Source: Capsulimonadales bacterium
GTDB lineage: Bacteria; Armatimonadota; Armatimonadia; Armatimonadales; Armatimonadaceae
Assembly: GCA_033762295.1 (NCBI GenBank)
Contig: JANRLW010000054.1
Location: 1-13,216, forward strand
Reading direction: 5' to 3'
DNA: 13,216 nt
The position numbers were made by a program, and so were the translations under genes. The stretch's first letter is position 1. Every line of letters starts with the position of its first letter. Below, piece by piece: positions 4,995 to 13,216 of the stretch. The notes below the pieces were generated by a model. It was not told the DNA's origin and did not search any database. It worked only from the letters and a program-made list of their open reading frames with translations.

Positions 4995-5696
4995 ATGCCC
5001 ATATCCAAGCGCCAACACAAAACCACGGACGCGCCCGCCTTATCGGAACGGAAGGTGCTGATGATCCCTGAGACCTATCGGGTAGGGGATTTGTCGTTCA
5101 CTCTCCGGACCCCCCGGATGCGCGAGGCTGACTCGATCGAGGAGCACGTCTATGAGATGTTCCCGGACTGCCTCCTCTTTGCCGCGATAGGCGATCGGGC
5201 CGGACGAGGAATCGACCTGCAAAAGGCATGGAATGTTTACACGCTCTCCCGCGCCCGCGCGCATGCTGAGGCGGTGGACGCCTGGAAACAAGCCAGACCT
5301 GAGGACGAGGACCCGGCGGCACTGGCCGTCTGGGAGGAACGCAATCCGGGCGAGATGGCCGACGTCGAGCTGAGCGAGGTGCTCGAACAATTCGATATCG
5401 CTCGAAGGACGATGAGGCACTTTCTCCCCGGTATCTGTGATGTCCTGATGCGCCTCCTCAGCGGCGATCATCCGTATGTGTGGCCGCTGCCCGCCGGTGA
5501 GGAAGGCGATCCGGTAGCGTTGCCGGACGGAAAACGGCCATTGGACGATGCGCTGCTCGATCTGGAGTTCACCGCGTTCGCCGACTTGCTCCGTGCGATT
5601 TTCGATTGTTTAGGAGGGTTCCCGGGCGACGCGGGGCACCGGTTTCTATCGAGCGATCACGGGACGGAACCATCCGGACGATCCCACGAAATATAG
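4995..5696 (+). CDS. Tail assembly chaperone (gpG-like), 233 aa
   Basis: GGAG RBS. Acidic, helical-looking protein between the tube and tape measure genes, overlapped at its 3' end by a start-less ORF in another frame. Confidence 0.7.
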   Translation: MPISKRQHKTTDAPALSERKVLMIPETYRVGDLSFTLRTPRMREADSIEEHVYEMFPDCLLFAAIGDRAGRGIDLQKAWNVYTLSRARAHAEAVDAWKQARPEDEDPAALAVWEERNPGEMADVELSEVLEQFDIARRTMRHFLPGICDVLMRLLSGDHPYVWPLPAGEEGDPVALPDGKRPLDDALLDLEFTAFADLLRAIFDCLGGFPGDAGHRFLSSDHGTEPSGRSHEI

Positions 5697-5910
5697 TCGG
5701 GATCGCCGGCAAAACCTGGCGGACACGGTCGAGTTCTATCGGCGGGTCGGCCAGATCTATGCTTGGATGACACCGACGTACCTTCGTGAGGAACTGACCG
5801 AACCGGCTCTGTATGCGTATACCTACGGCCTCGTAGATTACTCCGCCCGCTCGATCACTATGGGCATGGCGACTCTTCTTGTTGGCGACTCATCAGGCCG
5901 TAAGCCTTGA
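5644..5910 (+). CDS. gpT-like frameshift extension of the tail assembly chaperone (+1 frame)
   Basis: The +1 frame is open from 5614 to TGA 5908-5910 with no ATG before 5767. It has GC3-rich codons and reads FYRAITGRNHPDDPTKYSRDRRQNLADTVEFYRRVGQIYAWMTPTYLREELTEPALYAY...GRKP. 'WMTPTYLREELT' resembles gpT-type motifs. Confidence 0.65.
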   Translation, partial: FYRAITGRNHPDDPTKYSRDRRQNLADTVEFYRRVGQIYAWMTPTYLREELTEPALYAYTYGLVDYSARSITMGMATLLVGDSSGRKP

Positions 5911-5944
5911 TCCCAATGGTCGTGCCGTCCGGCAAGCCCTGTTT

Positions 5945-6272
5945 ACTTCAACCCTCACCAGCGGCGAACCGCCGGTGCAACTTATCGCGCTCTGCCGCAG
6001 AAACTGCGGTCTGTCACGGGTTTCAACCCTCACCAGCGGCGAACCGCCGGTGGAACCGTACCCCAGAGATCGGACGACTGACTGTTGAGGTAGTTTCAAC
6101 CCTCACCAGCGGCGAACCGCCGGTGGAACCGTGCTGGCCACCACTTGGGTTGCCTCCACCCAGGTTTCAACCCTCACCAGCGGCGAACCGCCGGTGGAAC
6201 GCTGCTCTTGCTACTAGCGCGAAAGACGGCGTTGTGTTTCAACCCTCACCAGCGGCGAACCGCCGGTGGAAC
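5945..6272 (-). CRISPR. CRISPR mini-array: 5 repeats (37 bp), 4 spacers (38, 36, 34, 35 bp); type I-C-like; no cas genes in window
   Basis: The + strand repeat GTTTCAACCCTCACCAGCGGCGAACCGCCGGTGGAAC is identical at 6020-6056, 6093-6129, 6164-6200 and 6236-6272. A degenerate copy with 3 mismatches lies at 5945-5981. Unique spacers are at 5982-6019, 6057-6092, 6130-6163 and 6201-6235. The minus-strand repeat GTTCCACCGGCGGTTCGCCGCTGGTGAGGGTTGAAAC has a 9-bp stem, a UUCG loop and ends in TTGAAAC. Confidence 0.97.
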
Positions 6273-6430
6273 GGCGATTTCGATCGTAAACTTGTACGTT
6301 TTCGCCCTTTCGCCGTTCTATTATGCGGGAGTACCGGTCGTTTTCGCAACTTTTGAGAGGGACGGCTTGCGCGAACGTCAGGGAAGATCGGGTCGCACTA
6401 CAGGTTCGCGGTCAACGGGTTCGCCGTCAG
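6273..6430 (-). promoter_or_regulatory. CRISPR leader with inverted repeat CGCGAAC...GTTCGCG
   Basis: Non-coding and less GC-rich than the flanking genes, next to the perfect-repeat end of the array. Perfect 7-bp inverted repeat at 6370-6376 / 6404-6410. Confidence 0.75.
6320..6349 (-). promoter_or_regulatory. Putative sigma70-type promoter for the array (-35 TTGCGA, 18 bp, -10 CATAAT)
   Basis: + strand TCGCAA 6344-6349 and ATTATG 6320-6325 read TTGCGA-N18-CATAAT on the minus strand, pointing into the first repeat ~50 bp away. Confidence 0.6.
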
Positions 6431-6471
6431 ACATCGAATAAGTTCTTGTAAGTTCTGGCAACAGAGGAACT

Positions 6472-9400
6472 ATGGCAAACGAAAAAGAAGCTGCCGTGCT
6501 GCTCCTTCGCGTCAGGGCGGATGCTGCCCAGGCAAAAAAAGAATTAGCCAATGTTTACGCGGTCGCGACGAACCAGGCGAAGGTTTCCGCTCGGGAGGTA
6601 CTTCGGATCAAGGAGTTGGAGGCCCGAAGCATCCTCCGGCAGGACGAGGCCCGTGCCAAATCCGCTGCCCGCGTCGCTCAGGCGGAGGCCAACGCCGCGA
6701 CATCGATTCAGCGAAGCGTTACCCAGACCCTTCGGGCCAAGCAACAGACGATCCGGGTGGAGGAGGAAGCCGCGCGTGCTGCGGAGCGGTCCGCCCAGCG
6801 GCGCGCACGCGCCAACGGTGGCAGTAACTTTGCCCTTCCCCGAACGTTCGCAGGCTTCTCCCCGGCGGGCGCTTTGCAGGGAGCCATGGCCGCCGGCGGG
6901 TTGTACCTCGCGGGCCAGGCGGCACAGCTCCCCGGGCAGATTTTCGAGACCCGCGCGACGTACGAGGGTCTGGAGAATGCGCTCCGTGCGCTGAACGGCT
7001 CGGCGGCAAAAACCGAGGCGCAACTGATCCGCCTTCGAGAGGTGGCGCAATTACCGGGTCTGGGCTTTCAGGAGGCCGTACAGGGCGCGATCCGGCTGCA
7101 AGGCGCAGGATTCCAGGCAGAACAGGCGGAGCGGCACCTGCGCAATTTTGGAAAAGCCGTAGCGCAGACCGGGGGCGGTCGCGAGGAGATCGAAGGGGTC
7201 ACGCTCGCGCTCGCGCAGATGGCGGCGAAAACCAAGGTTAGCGCCGAAGAGATCAATCAGCTTGCGGAGCGCATTCCCTCCATTCGTGTTGCCATGCAGC
7301 AGGCGTTCGGCACGTCCGATACCGAACTCATTCAGGCGGCGGGATTGGACCCGAAGCAGGCAATCGCAGCTCTGTCTCAGATTTACGAGCGGACCAAACA
7401 GGTCGAAGGCGGTCTGAAAAACAGTAAGGAGAACATTGTCGACGGCTTCAAGGAGATGTTCAACGAGATCGGTCGAGCGGCGCAGGAGTCGGGGGTAAAC
7501 AAACTGATGGACAATATGGCGAGCCTGCTGCGGCGCGGTGCGGGCAGCGTCCGGCAAAACACCGCCGTTCAGCGGGAAGGCCGACTTCTTGGCGACATCA
7601 TTTCCGGGCGCGGTTCGGCGAACGGCACGCCCCTGCCACGTCAGCAGCAACTGATCGCTCAGCGCCTGGCGCAGATCTCCCAGGACCTCCCCGCCGGGTT
7701 CGATCCGGATCGGTCAAACAACTCGACCCTAATCCAACTGGCCCGCGAACGCGAATCCCTCCTATCGTATCGGCGCGGCCTCGGCATGCAAAGCCAGTAC
7801 GAGAACCTGGGAGCATCGGGTAAGCCCTTCCGTATGGCGGCCGCGCCTATCATCGATGTCAAGCAGGTATCCGGGCTGCAAGCGGAGCTATCGGCGATCG
7901 TGGGCAAAATCGGCAAGGCCAAAACCGCAGAGCAGGTGTCCGCCCTGGCGGCGCGGGCGGAAGCCATCGCCCGGCGGATCAAGAGCACCCACGGTATCAG
8001 CCCGGACGCGGCAAACAAAAGCCTTCAGGCAGTTCAGGTAGCGGCGCAGGACAAACTCGCCACGCTTGCGGAAGCGGCCGCAAACGATGCGCGGGCGGCG
8101 GCGCAGATCGATGCTCAACGGCGACTGACCACGCTTTCCCGGACGTTTGGTTTCGCGCTCGATGAATTCGAGCAGGCACGAACGCCACAGGAGATCGAGC
8201 GGGCGCGACAGAATGCGTTCGGCCTCATGGGGCGGATCCGCAATGCTCAGGGAGCGGCGGCACAGGCAACTTATAACCGGCAGGTAGGCACGCATCCCCG
8301 CACCGCGGCCTCGAACCTCATGGCGGCGAAAGCGGACATACTGGCCGATAACGCCGATCGGGCCAAGAGCGTGCGTGAAGCGACCGAAAGAGCCGGCAAA
8401 CGCCTGCAGGACGAGGCCACCGAACAGCAGCGAATCATCGACCAGATCTATCAGATGCTCGACGAGGAGGACGAGGAAGCCGAGAAGCGGCGAAAGAAGC
8501 AGGTCCAGGAGGAGATCCGACGAATCGACGAGGCGCGGGAAGCTGACGAAAAGCTTCGGCAAGCCCTTCTGGATGGCCTCCGGGTCGATGAGGACACGCT
8601 CCGTCTTCAGCTCGAGCGGGCGAACAATTTCGAGGAAGCCCAGCGGATCATCGCCCAGATCGTCGATAACCTGCAAAGCCAGGCGATGAACGACTATTTC
8701 GGCACGATGTTTACCGATCCGACAGCGCAGAACCGGCTCGACCGATCGGGCATTCGGATCGCTCAAACCGCGAGGGAACTGACGGATAAAGCGTCGGGGC
8801 AGTTCCAGGAAACGGACCTGACAGCAAACCAGATGCCGACGATCACCAGCATGGACGATGACCATTATCAGGTGGTTCAGCCGGATGGATCGGTCCTTAC
8901 GGTCGACCGGGATACCTACCTGCGCTATCGTCGAGACTATGAGCGCCGAGACCGCCGGTCTCGGCGGGCGCGCGATCTGCGAGAGTCCGGTCGGCGGATG
9001 GAACAGAATGTGGAGAACGCCACCGGAGAATTCCTCGGCGATCTGACGCGTGGAAATGTCGAGGGAGCGGGTCGATCGGCGGTAATGGCGATCGTGGACA
9101 GCCTGCGACGCGAAGGCGGCGACCTGATCGCCCGGGAGATCAGCCGGGCGATCAAGCAACCGATTGGCGAGACGTTCCGGGACATCGCCGACGCGTTGAA
9201 CAAGAACATCAGTGGCTTGAATATCAGCGCGAAGAACCTGCTGATGGCGGGCGCATCACTGGCGGGCTTGGCCAACCTGCTCGGAGCGGGCGGAAAGAAA
9301 AAGCAGAAAAAGAGCGTTCTCGGGGGTATCGCCGGCGCGGTCGTCGGATCTTTTATCCCGGGCGGCAGTCTGCTGACCGACATCGGGATAGGCGCATTCG

Positions 9401-9684
9401 CCGGCGGATTCTTTGCCGAGGGCGGTCGCCCTCCTATCGGTCGTGCCTCCTGGGTCGGTGACGGCAAGGGCTGGATGGGGGCCCCGGAGTTGATTGTCCC
9501 GCAGGAACCGTCGGTCGTCCTCAATGAACGGCAGATCAAGGCCGTTCAAAACAAACTCGGCGGCGGCAAGAGCACGACGATCCATATCGGCACCATCCAC
9601 GATCGGGCCGATGCCGACTATCTGATCCGTCACATCGATGACCGCAACGACCGGCGCTCCTATCTGCCCGTGACGGAGTCATGA
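6472..9684 (+). CDS. Tail tape measure protein, 1070 aa
   Basis: GAGG RBS. Ala/Arg/Glu/Gln-rich helical protein. Has the tape-measure N-terminal motif 'LREVAQLPGLGFQEAVQGAIRLQGAG...LALAQMAAKTKVSAEEINQLAERIP' and the C-terminal motif 'FAEGGRPP...VGDG...PELIVP'. Confidence 0.95.
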   Translation: MANEKEAAVLLLRVRADAAQAKKELANVYAVATNQAKVSAREVLRIKELEARSILRQDEARAKSAARVAQAEANAATSIQRSVTQTLRAKQQTIRVEEEAARAAERSAQRRARANGGSNFALPRTFAGFSPAGALQGAMAAGGLYLAGQAAQLPGQIFETRATYEGLENALRALNGSAAKTEAQLIRLREVAQLPGLGFQEAVQGAIRLQGAGFQAEQAERHLRNFGKAVAQTGGGREEIEGVTLALAQMAAKTKVSAEEINQLAERIPSIRVAMQQAFGTSDTELIQAAGLDPKQAIAALSQIYERTKQVEGGLKNSKENIVDGFKEMFNEIGRAAQESGVNKLMDNMASLLRRGAGSVRQNTAVQREGRLLGDIISGRGSANGTPLPRQQQLIAQRLAQISQDLPAGFDPDRSNNSTLIQLARERESLLSYRRGLGMQSQYENLGASGKPFRMAAAPIIDVKQVSGLQAELSAIVGKIGKAKTAEQVSALAARAEAIARRIKSTHGISPDAANKSLQAVQVAAQDKLATLAEAAANDARAAAQIDAQRRLTTLSRTFGFALDEFEQARTPQEIERARQNAFGLMGRIRNAQGAAAQATYNRQVGTHPRTAASNLMAAKADILADNADRAKSVREATERAGKRLQDEATEQQRIIDQIYQMLDEEDEEAEKRRKKQVQEEIRRIDEAREADEKLRQALLDGLRVDEDTLRLQLERANNFEEAQRIIAQIVDNLQSQAMNDYFGTMFTDPTAQNRLDRSGIRIAQTARELTDKASGQFQETDLTANQMPTITSMDDDHYQVVQPDGSVLTVDRDTYLRYRRDYERRDRRSRRARDLRESGRRMEQNVENATGEFLGDLTRGNVEGAGRSAVMAIVDSLRREGGDLIAREISRAIKQPIGETFRDIADALNKNISGLNISAKNLLMAGASLAGLANLLGAGGKKKQKKSVLGGIAGAVVGSFIPGGSLLTDIGIGAFAGGFFAEGGRPPIGRASWVGDGKGWMGAPELIVPQEPSVVLNERQIKAVQNKLGGGKSTTIHIGTIHDRADADYLIRHIDDRNDRRSYLPVTES

Positions 9685-9713: not shown

Positions 9714-10466
9714 ATGCCTGATTTTGCCAAGAAATGGGTCTATGCCGGGATAACAACAACCTTTGACGCTCCCACGACCGCGATGGTGGAGCAGTGGGAC
9801 GAAGACGAATTCCGGCAAAATATCCCGACCGAGAGCAATGCCGAGGGGCGCGAGTGGCAGGGGGAGGCGGTTCCGGACGTTCGGATCGTGACCATTCCGA
9901 TCTATCTCGAAGGCGGCACGCGCCAGCAACTGCGCGACCGCTGGGAAGCCGTTGCATGCGCTCTGGCACAGCCGGCGGAGGGAACCTGGTACATGCACTC
10001 GGATCGATATGTCACCGGGCGGGTGAACATGATCCGCAAGGACCTCGACGAGGGAATGAACTTCCTGCGGGCCACCATCGGTCTGCGTTGCGCGGACCCC
10101 TACTGGTACAAGAACAGCCTGACCACGGCGACCTTGACCGGCGGCGGCAACAGTGTCACCATCGAGGGTGGCAACCGCCCTGTGCCGGTGTTCACGTTCG
10201 ACACCACCGGAGCCGGTGATTTGACCGTCACCCATGATGGCCGGAGCTTTGTTCTGGCCATCACCGACAATGCGCAGTATGTGATCGATTGCGGCACAGG
10301 CACGGTCACGCAGGGCGGCGTCGATGCGCTCGCCCTGATGACCGGGGAGTTTATCGAGGAGGGCCTCAGGGTCGGAGCCACCACGATCGGCGTCACGCTG
10401 GGCGGTACGCTCGCTCTGTCCTCCGGCAGCGTCTCCTACCGTCCTCGCTGGGCACATACCGCCTGA
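9714..10466 (+). CDS. Distal tail protein (Dit, siphovirus tail component), 250 aa
   Basis: GAGGAG RBS, directly after the tape measure gene. Dit-like motifs 'RIVTIPIYL', 'ATIGLRCADPYWY', 'GNRPVPVFTF', 'YVIDCGTGTV' and terminal 'VSYRPRW'. Confidence 0.85.
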   Translation: MPDFAKKWVYAGITTTFDAPTTAMVEQWDEDEFRQNIPTESNAEGREWQGEAVPDVRIVTIPIYLEGGTRQQLRDRWEAVACALAQPAEGTWYMHSDRYVTGRVNMIRKDLDEGMNFLRATIGLRCADPYWYKNSLTTATLTGGGNSVTIEGGNRPVPVFTFDTTGAGDLTVTHDGRSFVLAITDNAQYVIDCGTGTVTQGGVDALALMTGEFIEEGLRVGATTIGVTLGGTLALSSGSVSYRPRWAHTA

Positions 10467-10474
10467 CCTTCATC

Positions 10475-10502
10475 CCCCGCTTCTTTTTGAAGCGGGGATT
10501 CT
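10475..10502 (+). terminator. Intergenic stem-loop (possible terminator/attenuator or mRNA-stabilising hairpin)
   Basis: CCCCGCTTC-TTTTT-GAAGCGGGG is a perfect 9-bp stem (10475-10497) just after the Dit stop. The U-tract is weak (ATTCTT). Confidence 0.45.
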
Positions 10503-10519
10503 TCCCCGTAACTGCTTCT

Positions 10520-13216
10520 ATGAAACGACCCTTTGAGGTGCGCCTCTATCGCGCAGGCTCGAACACGGCCTATCGCGTGCTACCGCTGAAGCTGGTCGGT
10601 CCCTCCGTCTACCGGGTGGGGCGGGAAGGGTATTACCTTGACGCCACGCTCACCCTGAAGGGACGACTGTCCGATTCGCCGCTCTCCGGTATCGTTAGCG
10701 ATGCCCGCGTCGGCTTTTTCGGTCAGGGGGTCGATGGCAACCCGGTGGAGTGCTACATCGGGTATGTGCGCGATATCCAGGAGGTCAAGATCGGCGTTCG
10801 AAAGGTCGTGCTGACCCTCTACGGGCTGTACGAACGGATCAGCCGCATCCCGGTCCGGCAACGGTTCGCCTTCCCCTCCGCGGATGAAGAGGGGGTCGAT
10901 CTCTCGGTCGCGGCCAGTCGTATCTGGAACGCCTGGGCGAAGCGATACTACCCGGATCTGCTCGTCTCGACGTCCACGGTCGGTCAGACGGTCGATTATG
11001 TCGATGGCTTCCGTCGCACGATCGGCGACATCAACGGCGACCTGATGCGCCTCGCGGGCGGTCTGATGGCGTTCGGTTGCGACACCGATTCGGCGACCGG
11101 CCAGGATCGGCTTTTCATACGGGCCTACGGCGACCCCAACGCCCCGGATCACGTCTGGTCGTTGCCATCCCCACCCGATGCACCATTTCAGGTGATAGCC
11201 AAGCGCAGCGGCAAGGACAGCCGTCGGATCGTCAATGTGCTGGATGTCGTCGGGGGGCAGCCGCAATATCCGAACCTGATGACGCGCGGCGCGGGGTTCG
11301 AGTATCCGACCCTGACCGGTACGGTCACTAACCTGATTACCGATCCGGGCTTCGAGGCAGCGGGAGCCGGTCCGTGGACGCTTGGCGGCGGAGCGAGTGA
11401 AAAGCTGGCCAGCGAGGGAGTGGAAGGGCAGACCGATGGCGGCAACACCATGGTCGAGCTGGACAACGATGGCGAGTACGTACAGCAGGTGGTGGACAGT
11501 CCGGCAGTCGCTTTGGTCCCCGGCGCGATGTACACGGCGGAGGTCCGCGCCCGTCTGGAGAGCGGAACCCATCTTTCGTACGTCGATGCCACCCTGACCT
11601 GGCGCAACGCCGGCGGGAGCGTTGGCACGTTGACCCAACGGATCGCCCCGACCTCTGCGGATTTCGCCACCTTTCGGATCAGCGGCCCGTGCCCCACCGG
11701 CGCGGACCGGTTCACCTTCCGCACCGAAATGCCCACGGGCGGCGATGCAGGCGACGGAGTGATGGTCGATAACGTCGCCGTCTACAATAGCGAGGCGGTG
11801 TCTGCCGAGGGCATGGAAGTCCGCGTCAACGGCGGCAATCTAACGGGATCGGCCCAGGTTAACTCCATCGACTGGGCTTACCCGGACGGGCACTCAGGGG
11901 CTTACTGCCTGGCCTTTGATGTGGTCTCGACCGATGCGGACAACAACGACGTCTCGATTCGCGAGTTCCAGGGCCGACCGATCCCGGTCACGCCGCGCGG
12001 CAATTACCGGCTCACCGCCTGGGTCAAGAACTTTCCGGGCGAGATTAGCTACCCGGCGATTCAGTTGCAGATCCTGAAGCTAAACAACGGTGAGTATAAG
12101 AACATCGGGGTGGTCAACTTTGCGAGCGGGAACTACCCGGACTGGACGCCGCTGATCCTCGAAGGCGTGCCGGGCGATATCGCGTTCGATCAGAACCAGG
12201 CGATTCCTGCGTTCGTAATTCGTGGGACCGGCAAGGGCCTGATGGACAGCCTGCTGTTCACCGCGTCCGCTGCGCCGAAGGTCGGGGGCGTGCCGGTCTA
12301 TTATGAGGGGCCGTTCGAGGCGACGTATCGGGCCGATGAGCGGTTCGGCTCCGGTCCCATTCATGATAGCAACGCCGATTACGGCGACCTTCCCGAGCTG
12401 GTGACGAACGACTCGATTCAGACCCATGAGGACGGAGGCAGGCTGGCGGATGCGACATTTACTGCCAGGGCAAGAGAGGTACGGAACCCCGATGTGGAGA
12501 TCGTGGGCGCGGCACTGCCGATCCGACCGGGTCAGTATGTGCGCGGGATTGGCAGTGAGTCGGGAGCGATCCTGCCCGAGCCGTTGCCGATTGTGGAGAT
12601 CGAGGGCCGGTACGACGGGGGCAAGCTGACTCAGGCGGTGTATTTTGCGACCGAACGTCCGGACGATGTGCGAACTCAGATACGGCTTGCGCGAGAGGCG
12701 GCGAAACGATCGCAGTACTCCGGGTCGATCGCGGCGGGAGCGCTCTCCGGCGGCGGGAACGGCGGGTTCGTCGATGCCAGGGCCACCGAGGTGCAGGCCG
12801 CGCGCACCCGAGACGCAAACGCGCCCTGGCTGGCGGCAACCTTTGCGACATTGAAAGCGCATTTCGCCGCGATCTGGAAACTGCTGCGGACCTCGGCAAC
12901 GAATGCGTCGGGTGCGTATGCCTCGACGGCACGGATCGGCAAATATGTTCGCGTCATCAACGGCGCGGACAGCTACGGGGGGACCTACACGGGCACCTAC
13001 GCACCGACCGACGGGATTCGATTTGCGGCGACCAATAGTATTGAGCCGACGATCAATGTGACGACGGACGGAGTACTGGAAGTCAGCTTGACGAACGTCT
13101 GGTATCAATCGCATCCGCCCGAAACCGCCAACAAAACCCTGGCCGCCGATGAATGGGCCCAGTTCGACACGTCGATCGGGCCATTGTATGCCACGCTGCC
13201 GAGCGCGGGGTTTGTC
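10520..13216 (+). CDS. Tal / baseplate hub-tail tip protein with two CBM_4_9-like carbohydrate-binding inserts, 3'-partial (>=899 aa)
   Basis: Absent from the ORF track because it has no stop in the window. I translated it from ATG 10520 (MKRPFEVRLYRAGS...) and found it open to the end. Hub-like motifs: 'YIGYVRDIQ...VVLTLYGLYERI', 'DSRRIVNVLDVVGG', 'YGDLPELVTNDSI', 'IRPGQYV'. CBM-like motifs: 'NLITDPGFE...LVPGAMYTAEVRAR...VMVDNVAV' and 'HSGAYCL...PVTPRGNYRLTAWVK'. Confidence 0.85.
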   Translation, partial: MKRPFEVRLYRAGSNTAYRVLPLKLVGPSVYRVGREGYYLDATLTLKGRLSDSPLSGIVSDARVGFFGQGVDGNPVECYIGYVRDIQEVKIGVRKVVLTLYGLYERISRIPVRQRFAFPSADEEGVDLSVAASRIWNAWAKRYYPDLLVSTSTVGQTVDYVDGFRRTIGDINGDLMRLAGGLMAFGCDTDSATGQDRLFIRAYGDPNAPDHVWSLPSPPDAPFQVIAKRSGKDSRRIVNVLDVVGGQPQYPNLMTRGAGFEYPTLTGTVTNLITDPGFEAAGAGPWTLGGGASEKLASEGVEGQTDGGNTMVELDNDGEYVQQVVDSPAVALVPGAMYTAEVRARLESGTHLSYVDATLTWRNAGGSVGTLTQRIAPTSADFATFRISGPCPTGADRFTFRTEMPTGGDAGDGVMVDNVAVYNSEAVSAEGMEVRVNGGNLTGSAQVNSIDWAYPDGHSGAYCLAFDVVSTDADNNDVSIREFQGRPIPVTPRGNYRLTAWVKNFPGEISYPAIQLQILKLNNGEYKNIGVVNFASGNYPDWTPLILEGVPGDIAFDQNQAIPAFVIRGTGKGLMDSLLFTASAAPKVGGVPVYYEGPFEATYRADERFGSGPIHDSNADYGDLPELVTNDSIQTHEDGGRLADATFTARAREVRNPDVEIVGAALPIRPGQYVRGIGSESGAILPEPLPIVEIEGRYDGGKLTQAVYFATERPDDVRTQIRLAREAAKRSQYSGSIAAGALSGGGNGGFVDARATEVQAARTRDANAPWLAATFATLKAHFAAIWKLLRTSATNASGAYASTARIGKYVRVINGADSYGGTYTGTYAPTDGIRFAATNSIEPTINVTTDGVLEVSLTNVWYQSHPPETANKTLAADEWAQFDTSIGPLYATLPSAGFV

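Follow-up and report, generated by a model that had tools for sequence, protein, structure and literature searches.

CRISPR arrays without cas genes are known from phages. Prophages of Clostridioides difficile carry type I-B arrays and cyanophage N-1 carries another; these are longer Cas-less phage arrays that match the CRISPR type of the host. The locus described here is an array of five repeats and four spacers in the phage contig JANRLW010000054.1 of a Capsulimonadales bacterium, and it differs from those arrays in subtype and in host phylum. The window, i.e. the whole stretch of DNA that was analysed, is the entire 13,216-bp contig (C54) of the metagenome-assembled genome G000 (132 contigs, 5.16 Mb, 94.5% completeness), hereafter the host genome. 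The array is Cas-less and probably uses the type I-C proteins of the host. Phage-borne arrays of this kind being known, what is new is its setting between a putative tail assembly chaperone gene and a tape-measure gene.

Viral mini-arrays and solitary repeats that make use of host Cas proteins were described for the Saccharolobus portogloboviruses SPV1 and SPV2 and in a survey of mobile elements (PMC11656645). The published mini-arrays have one or two spacers, repeats identical to those of the host, and spacers that match related viruses. The present array resembles the SPV1/SPV2-type mini-arrays in that it is Cas-less, lies in a viral genome, belongs to the CRISPR type of the host lineage, and presumably depends on host effectors directed against rivals. 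It differs from them by its four spacers, by a full leader of the bacterial type, by a repeat that is identical at 24 to 30 of 37 positions to any bacterial repeat found, and in that no target was found. The viral genome without cas genes is represented here by a 13-kb fragment, with tail-completion, tape-measure and Dit genes as flanks of the array.

RNA anti-CRISPRs (Racrs) are solitary repeat units, of which RacrIC1 acts against type I-C systems (PMC10651486). With RacrIC1 the array shares a phage-encoded type I-C repeat hairpin behind a promoter, in this case a promoter-like site. Racrs are single repeats without spacers, whereas the present array is regular and has unique canonical spacers. 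Arrays of the Cracr type are likewise multi-unit phage arrays without cas genes that act via host Cas proteins, and type I-C examples are reported in the source cited below; in contrast to these, the search of the host cas locus gave no seed match for the present array, and its spacers are of full length. Bacterial type I-C loci such as that of genome G005 have in common with the array the 37-nt repeat design, the hairpin, the 11-nt tail, and the distances of a palindrome and a -10-like box. The phage array differs from them in having no cas genes in cis, in its position in a phage tail module, and in two substitutions, of which the first lies in the handle and the other at repeat position 4.

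The reading preferred here, with a probability of roughly 0.55, is that a leader-equipped array was captured; its own promoter would drive its transcription, host Cas5c would process the RNA, and host Cascade would take up the products and act against competing elements.

Array architecture and orientation

Five direct repeats of 37 nt were located at 5945-6272 (Table 1), with start-to-start spacings of 75, 73, 71 and 72 nt. Four of the five are identical, the copy at 5945-5981 has three mismatches, and a control with the reversed pattern gave no match. The four spacers (34 to 38 nt) are all different and mutually unrelated, and their lengths fall within the range of 34 to 40 nt seen in the host array. 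The locus hence has the make-up of a CRISPR array, namely at least three near-identical, regularly placed repeats separated by unique spacers of similar length. A coding tandem repeat was considered and rejected: the spacing is not a multiple of three, and in the mechanically derived open reading frames (ORFs) that cross the array the frame shifts from unit to unit, so that the repeat reads as different peptides.

Between the end of the preceding frame (5910) and the start of the tape-measure gene (6472) there is a gap of 561 nt, most of which is filled by the array. Five repeats, four unique spacers and a leader had already been noticed in this gap in the first-pass annotation of the DNA, and were confirmed by the repeat scan, the coordinates and the alignment of the leader. 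Its statement that no cas gene lies nearby also held, as none of the 11 large ORFs scanned on the whole contig matched a Cas family and no cas operon adjoins the array. That the array is maintained, as was further proposed, is a fair inference from the four identical repeats but is not proven by them.

Five lines of evidence place the array on the minus strand and hence antisense to the tail genes; the first-pass annotation had assigned no strand. The hairpin of the minus-strand repeat contains a G-U pair that becomes an A-C mismatch on the plus strand, where the predicted fold is weaker (-14.0 kcal/mol, against -17.3 on the minus strand). A motif of the TTGAAAC type is located at the minus-strand 3' end of the repeat. 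The degenerate repeat at 5945 forms the far end of an array read in this direction, and the promoter-like site and the leader stand at its near end, on the minus strand. All Rfam CRISPR-DR matches were on the minus strand as well. Four were to CRISPR-DR9 (21.1 bits) and a fifth, overlapping match was to CRISPR-DR29 (19 bits); each score lies below the gathering score of its family.

Repeat structure and distribution

The minus-strand repeat RNA was predicted to form a 9-bp stem (positions 5-13 with 18-26) closed by a UUCG loop and followed by an 11-nt tail, and by this predicted fold it is of type I-C design. The repeat of the host array folds identically into a stem-loop with an 11-nt single-stranded 3' tail. 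Phage and host repeats are identical at 24 of 37 positions; in five of the nine pairs of the stem both bases differ between the two repeats, with pairing retained. The repeats of the array are thus not identical or near-identical to those of the host, as the repeats of mini-arrays are, though the structural design matches.

Covariation was analyzed in an alignment of 16 repeats (two from the phage, eight bacterial, and six from viral contigs). All 144 of the 144 stem cells were paired, and compensatory changes occurred in five of the nine pairs. The observed covariation score was reached by none of 500 shuffles, and sliding of the pairing partners lowered the pairing to 33-52%.

Members of the repeat family were searched with a pattern in which the flanks and the loop were fixed and the stem was left free. 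Of 401 sampled genomes of the phylum, G000 among them, 35 had arrays of this kind; within the taxonomic family to which G000 belongs, and with G000 left out, the count was 6 of 23. The phage repeat itself had no further copy in G000, and none at up to three mismatches in 70 other genomes of the order. A 24-nt exact core of the repeat gave no stretch in the viral contigs. A 22-nt core gave 11 stretches in genome contigs and six in metagenome contigs, all of which were rejected: they stood alone or far from one another (on one contig, two copies were separated by about 750 nt), were identical to the full repeat at 22 to 26 of 37 positions, and none lay in an array. A cas-linked array with the exact repeat was not found in the collections searched, an outcome that the first-pass annotation had named as counting against its reading.

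Position 4 of the repeat is C in the four identical units, and G in the terminal unit and in all 14 of the 14 other aligned repeats. The pattern is as expected if a mutated first repeat had been copied at each later spacer acquisition; the array would therefore have grown by adaptation after that mutation, be it in the phage or in the donor locus.

Leader, promoter-like site and palindrome

The 150 nt upstream of the first repeat align with the leaders of bacterial arrays of the repeat family. They were 41-49% identical to those of same-family genomes (the flank of a solitary repeat in G026 was excluded), a range like that among these bacterial leaders themselves (41-53%). The GC content falls to 0.55 in the leader. 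Three features are common to the phage and the bacterial leaders: the last bases before the repeat, a -10-like box, and a palindrome. The sigma-70-like site directed towards the array is the only one in the interval 5600-6700 (shuffled sequences, 0.2 on average), and its -10 box occupies the same alignment columns as the -10-like boxes of the bacterial leaders.

The palindrome was found 89-90 nt from the first repeat in six of nine bacterial leaders when the strict pattern was applied, and as a one-base variant in a seventh. In the 5.16-Mb genome the pattern occurs at only three loci, the phage locus included. It was also recorded in loci L053, L055, L056, L058, L060 and L061, where it lies about 89-130 nt before the first repeat; the genomes concerned come from two families within the order. 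Standing upstream of the -10-like box, it is a putative binding site for a regulator or for a protein of the integration-host-factor type.

In genome G005 (same order), the type I-C locus has the order Cas5c, Cas7, Cas3, Cas4, Cas1c, Cas2, leader, array. Its Cas1c scored 477 bits (cut-off 385), and the homologous leader follows Cas4, Cas1c and Cas2. Judged by homology, the stretch 6273-6471 is a true leader, related to the cas2-adjacent leaders of bacteria. A leader with a promoter, as belongs to a type I-C array, is represented here by the promoter-like site, the leader homology and the rare palindrome.

Type I-C genes of the host genome

A simple array scan of G000 returned two further arrays, located at the starts of contigs C53 and C76. 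One of them ends in 20 nt and the other begins with 17 nt that add up to one 37-nt repeat, and the two are probably parts of one array of at least 27 repeat units, partial end units included. The gene order on C53 1-8745 (L006) is WYL-domain protein, Cas3, a 141-aa ORF without matches, Cas5c, Cas8c and Cas7, followed after about 85 nt by the array; C76 1-1184 (L007) holds the other part of the split array. With the NCBIfam models, Cas7/Csd2 scored 337 bits (cut-off 182), Cas8c 272 bits (219) and Cas5c 126 bits (85). Cas3 scored above the cut-offs of the domain models for Cas3 HD and for the helicase core. By these matches C53 carries a type I-C interference module. The array scan also recorded, at C117 29580-30130, a tandem repeat of degenerate units, its period being about 60-100 nt; by eye it looks like a coding repeat and not like CRISPR.

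The Cas1 model PF01867 gave no match in G000 and did match in control genomes. A tblastn search of G000 with Cas1, Cas2 and Cas4 of a same-family genome gave no match either, which in a 94%-complete bin is not proof of absence. The host array has no canonical leader of the palindrome type, and only about 85 nt separate the cas7 stop codon from the first repeat. The missing leader, together with the missing cas4, cas1 and cas2, suggests a deletion by which the array was fused to cas7.

A second set of Cascade genes was found at C22 10814-14096 (L069), in the order Cas8c, Cas5c, Cas7. Its Cas5c and Cas7 are 60% and 67% identical, respectively, to those of C53. The set is located between housekeeping genes (purA, miaA) and a pilin-like gene, and no Cas3, array or adaptation genes were found on the 19-kb contig; by its gene content it is an orphan Cascade.

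Related elements in viral contigs

The family pattern was matched by eight stretches on seven viral contigs. Five of these contigs carry solitary repeats of the family just upstream of ORFs, in at least four distinct sequence contexts; one contig carries a second copy 4 kb from the first, and one context is common to two contigs. The solitary repeats are located at 6001-6037 in L046, at 6001-6037 in L047 (minus strand), at 533-569 and 4537-4573 in L049, and at 6001-6037 and 1854-1890 in L050/L052 (minus strand). They are intergenic and stand immediately 5' of the ribosome-binding sites of phage ORFs, and one of them follows a promoter-like sequence and precedes a small helix-turn-helix-like ORF. 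Their placement makes them candidate RNA anti-CRISPRs or candidate sites of Cas5c-dependent mRNA processing.

At L045 5927-6085 a mini-array with two repeats and a partial third was found. Its repeat is identical to the G000 host repeat at 34 of 37 positions, and the mini-array may therefore belong to a phage of a close relative of the G000 host. One of its units carries the same handle substitution as the phage array; its two spacers had no match in G000. The short viral contig L051 ends in at least two repeats of the family. Phages of the lineage thus appear to carry pieces of the type I-C repeat family repeatedly.

Spacer searches

Targets of the spacers were searched in the host genome, phage and plasmid records, viral contigs and genomes of the order. 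This search was far from exhaustive, and in the viral contigs it was confined to exact 22-nt seeds. The first-pass annotation had proposed that the spacers are directed against competing phages, other elements or host genes, and no matching sequence turned up in these collections. In the own genome, blastn-short returned self matches and words of up to 17 nt only, and the best ungapped spacer matches in window and genome were equal to those of shuffled controls. For three of the four spacers the host genome contains an exact word of 16 nt; these words are marginal, each being matched or exceeded by 12-23 of 300 shuffles. Type I-C protospacers are flanked by a protospacer-adjacent motif (PAM) of the TTC type; the 16-nt words were rejected as targets, being internal, without extension (19-20 identities over 35-38 nt) and without a TTC-type flank.

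The blastn searches yielded four chance-level matches in phage records (E 0.6-7) and 16 chance-level matches in plasmid records, the latter mostly over the repeat stem. Each of the four 22-nt spacer seeds had no exact match in the viral contigs, and the two leader-proximal spacers had no match with up to three mismatches in 70 genomes of the order. None of the 24 host spacers matched the phage contig. Host and phage spacers had no match in the viral loci L045-L052 or in eight prophage loci, and the spacers of two viral mini-arrays had none in the host genome. PAM-proximal seeds of at least 9 nt were absent from the host cas locus (C53 1-12000) for every spacer. In the cas loci of two relatives one seed each was found, that of sp4 in L067 and that of sp1 in L068, with no extension (15/35 and 12/38 identities) and with flanks other than TTC.

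Contig setting and tail module

The array is flanked by the genes of a tail module of the siphovirus type, which follow one another in the canonical order (tail completion, tape measure, Dit). The tail-completion-like protein matched PHROG 26, and Dit matched PHROG 33 with an E-value of 1e-17. The coordinates of the array, the leader elements and the adjoining genes are compiled in Table 1.

Table 1. Coordinates of the array, its leader and the adjoining genes on the 13,216-bp contig
Position	Strand	Feature	Remarks
4995..5696	+	Putative tail assembly chaperone, 233 aa, gene before the gap	Assigned by position, directly before the tape-measure gene
5611..5910	+	Alternative frame overlapping the end of the 4995..5696 ORF, open to the stop at 5908-5910	Three-frame translation
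5945..5981	-	Distal (oldest) degenerate repeat	3 mismatches; same 9-bp hairpin kept
5982..6019	-	Spacer, 38 nt (oldest)	No target found
6020..6056	-	Repeat, 37 nt, exact	
6057..6092	-	Spacer, 36 nt	No target found
6093..6129	-	Repeat, 37 nt, exact	
6130..6163	-	Spacer, 34 nt	No target found
6164..6200	-	Repeat, 37 nt, exact	
6201..6235	-	Spacer, 35 nt (leader-proximal, newest)	No target found
6236..6272	-	Leader-proximal repeat, 37 nt, exact	Rfam CRISPR-DR9, 21.1 bits (gathering score 45)
6273..6471	-	Leader, 199 nt, up to the tape-measure start codon	Aligns with bacterial leaders of the same repeat family
6320..6349	-	Sigma-70-like promoter site towards the array	9/12 hexamer matches, 18-nt spacer
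6370..6410	.	Palindrome of the leader, inverted arms of 7 nt with 27 nt between them	Distance to the first repeat 97 nt
6472..9684	+	Tape measure protein, 1070 aa	Pfam TMP_3, E 9.7e-21; 6 PHROG families match, 5 of 6 annotated tape measure

The assignment of the upstream gene as a tail chaperone, made in the first-pass annotation, is favoured by its position and by weak leads from the atlas, where the nearest clusters of the 4995..5696 product include tail-assembly-chaperone families, all below the bars of the tool and thus leads only. It received no support from Pfam or PHROG, in neither of which the product had a match. From the usual arrangement of chaperone genes, the frame at 5611..5910 is a possible frameshift extension ('T-like') of the chaperone-like ORF; no slippery site was identified for it.

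Eight tape-measure loci of distant relatives were fetched, one of which was cut by a contig end. In all seven evaluable cases the nearest upstream ORF on the same strand ended 3-92 nt before the tape-measure start (mechanical ORFs), as against 561 nt here. These relatives, found in genomes, share the conserved tape-measure domain alone, with identities of up to 49%. In the viral contigs, tblastn confirmed no phage relative for either of two proteins, the tape-measure and the chaperone-like one. Neither end of the contig overlaps another contig.

Downstream of Dit, a large ORF (10289-13216, 976 aa so far) is open at its 3' end; its start overlaps the Dit ORF in another frame. It gave a weak match to the carbohydrate-binding module CBM_4_9 (E 2e-4, below cut-off) and is probably a tail tip or receptor-binding protein.

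Interpretation of the array

We infer each step of the following course of events. A tailed phage or prophage would have captured the array, leader included, from a type I-C locus in bacteria of the host lineage, and the array would now form a self-contained antisense cassette between the tail-chaperone and tape-measure genes. The leader promoter would drive transcription of the minus strand independently of the late tail operon. Cas5c reportedly processes repeat RNA, as is said to have been found by Nam and by Garside in 2012; the host Cas5c may accordingly cut the repeats at the base of the 9-bp hairpin, releasing CRISPR RNAs (crRNAs) with an 11-nt 5' handle, a guide of 34-38 nt and a 3' hairpin. 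These crRNAs would be loaded into the host Cascade of Cas5c, Cas8c and Cas7, and Cas3 would be recruited against DNA that matches the guide. Competing phages or other mobile elements are the most likely targets, so that carrier and host would be shielded from rivals. Since the host has interference genes and neither detectable adaptation genes nor a canonical leader, the phage array would add specificities that the host cannot acquire itself.

Several observations weigh against this course of events. For no spacer was a protospacer found in the collections searched, and targeting is thus unproven. The repeats of published mini-arrays are identical to those of the host (PMC11656645) and those of the phage array are not: the phage repeat differs from that of the co-binned host at 13 of 37 positions, the best bacterial repeat found agrees with it at 30 of 37, and no cas-linked array with the core of the phage repeat was found in three collections (viral, genome and metagenome contigs). 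The base in eighth place from the 3' end is G in all five phage repeats and A in all listed bacterial repeats; this substitution lies inside the future crRNA handle and could impair or change the loading of crRNAs. No terminator was found for the array. The contig is a 13-kb fragment, and cas genes could lie elsewhere in the phage; its link to the host is given by metagenomic binning, similar GC content, and distant tape-measure relatives in the same phylum. The use of a host Cascade, as envisaged in the first-pass annotation, is therefore upheld as far as type I-C Cas3, Cas5c, Cas8c and Cas7 and an array of the same design exist in the co-binned genome, and weakened by the missing target and the repeat identity of 24/37.

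It appears unlikely that the array serves instead as an RNA decoy, i.e. that repeat transcripts bind host Cas5c and Cas7, compete with the host crRNAs and lower type I-C immunity against this phage, with the spacers being incidental. Such a role would fit the solitary repeats of the same 37-nt family in at least four viral-contig contexts and the experimental inhibition of CRISPR by solitary-repeat Racrs, a type I-C one among them (PMC10651486). The handle substitution, common to one L045 repeat and no listed bacterial repeat, might suit a non-productive mimic, and any highly expressed foreign array competes for Cas proteins. Racrs, however, are solitary and have no canonical spacers, and here five regular repeats enclose four canonical spacers. 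The degenerate terminal repeat, the propagated mutation of the first repeat and the complete bacterial-type leader are marks of an array built by adaptation, and none of the 24 host spacers matches the contig, so that no pressure from the host array is visible. We likewise give little credence to an inert passenger, a piece of bacterial CRISPR brought into a permissive intergenic site by illegitimate recombination and neither expressed nor used. The four repeats are identical over 37 nt, and no damage is seen in the hairpin, the promoter-like site or the palindrome of the leader, whereas a decaying relic should have scattered mutations; the recurrence of the repeat family in several unrelated viral contigs argues for selection. 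The missing target, the missing cognate array, the handle substitution, and the tolerance of tail-gene gaps for inserts are nevertheless what a passenger would show.

A regulatory crRNA-like array of the Cracr type, the guides of which would pair partially with promoters of host cas or defence genes so that Cascade represses them, is a very improbable explanation. The second Cascade set of the host, without Cas3 on its contig, could bind without cutting, and three of the four spacers have a 16-nt exact match in the host genome; these matches, however, are internal, do not extend and have no TTC-type flank, the host cas locus contains no PAM-proximal seed of at least 9 nt, and the two seeds in the relatives do not extend and have flanks other than TTC. 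Phage and plasmid arrays, among them nine two-spacer type I-C arrays, are reported in the Cracr study (bioRxiv 10.1101/2024.10.29.618823), where the type I-E example has short psi-spacers of 21 and 24 nt, in contrast to the full-length spacers found here. That a bacterial-chromosome array was mis-joined to phage DNA during assembly or binning is scarcely credible. CRISPR repeats do break assemblies, and the host array is itself split over two contig ends, but on either side of the phage array stand neighbouring genes of a single tail module, in the canonical order, and the gap between them is filled exactly by the insert; the repeat of the insert differs from that of the host array at 13/37 positions and is absent elsewhere in the genome, and the contig ends overlap nothing.

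An extension of the capture reading, speculative and quite unlikely, is a split CRISPR system in which the phage array is the dedicated guide source of one host Cascade. The host lineage would have lost cas1, cas2, cas4 and the leader and kept its second Cascade gene set, which has no Cas3 and no array on its contig, and the phage would hold the only leader-equipped array, with a handle variant of its own. With the Cas3-less Cascade, the phage array could silence rather than cut. The array could also grow in relatives that have Cas1, Cas2 and Cas4, and in this way the phage would carry immune memory between hosts.

Significance

Most of the cases described so far are mini-arrays with one or two spacers and host-identical repeats. 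Under the capture reading, the present locus would show the capture of a whole bacterial array together with its leader, including the promoter-like site, the conserved palindrome and the leader-repeat junction, and the array shows signs of growth by adaptation. It comes from a little-studied, uncultured lineage, the own type I-C locus of which appears to have lost adaptation. The two host Cas5c paralogues and the two repeat variants, which differ by compensatory stem changes and one handle base, form a small set that can be tested. Taken together, the array and the solitary repeats suggest that phages of this lineage exploit the type I-C system of their hosts in more than one way.

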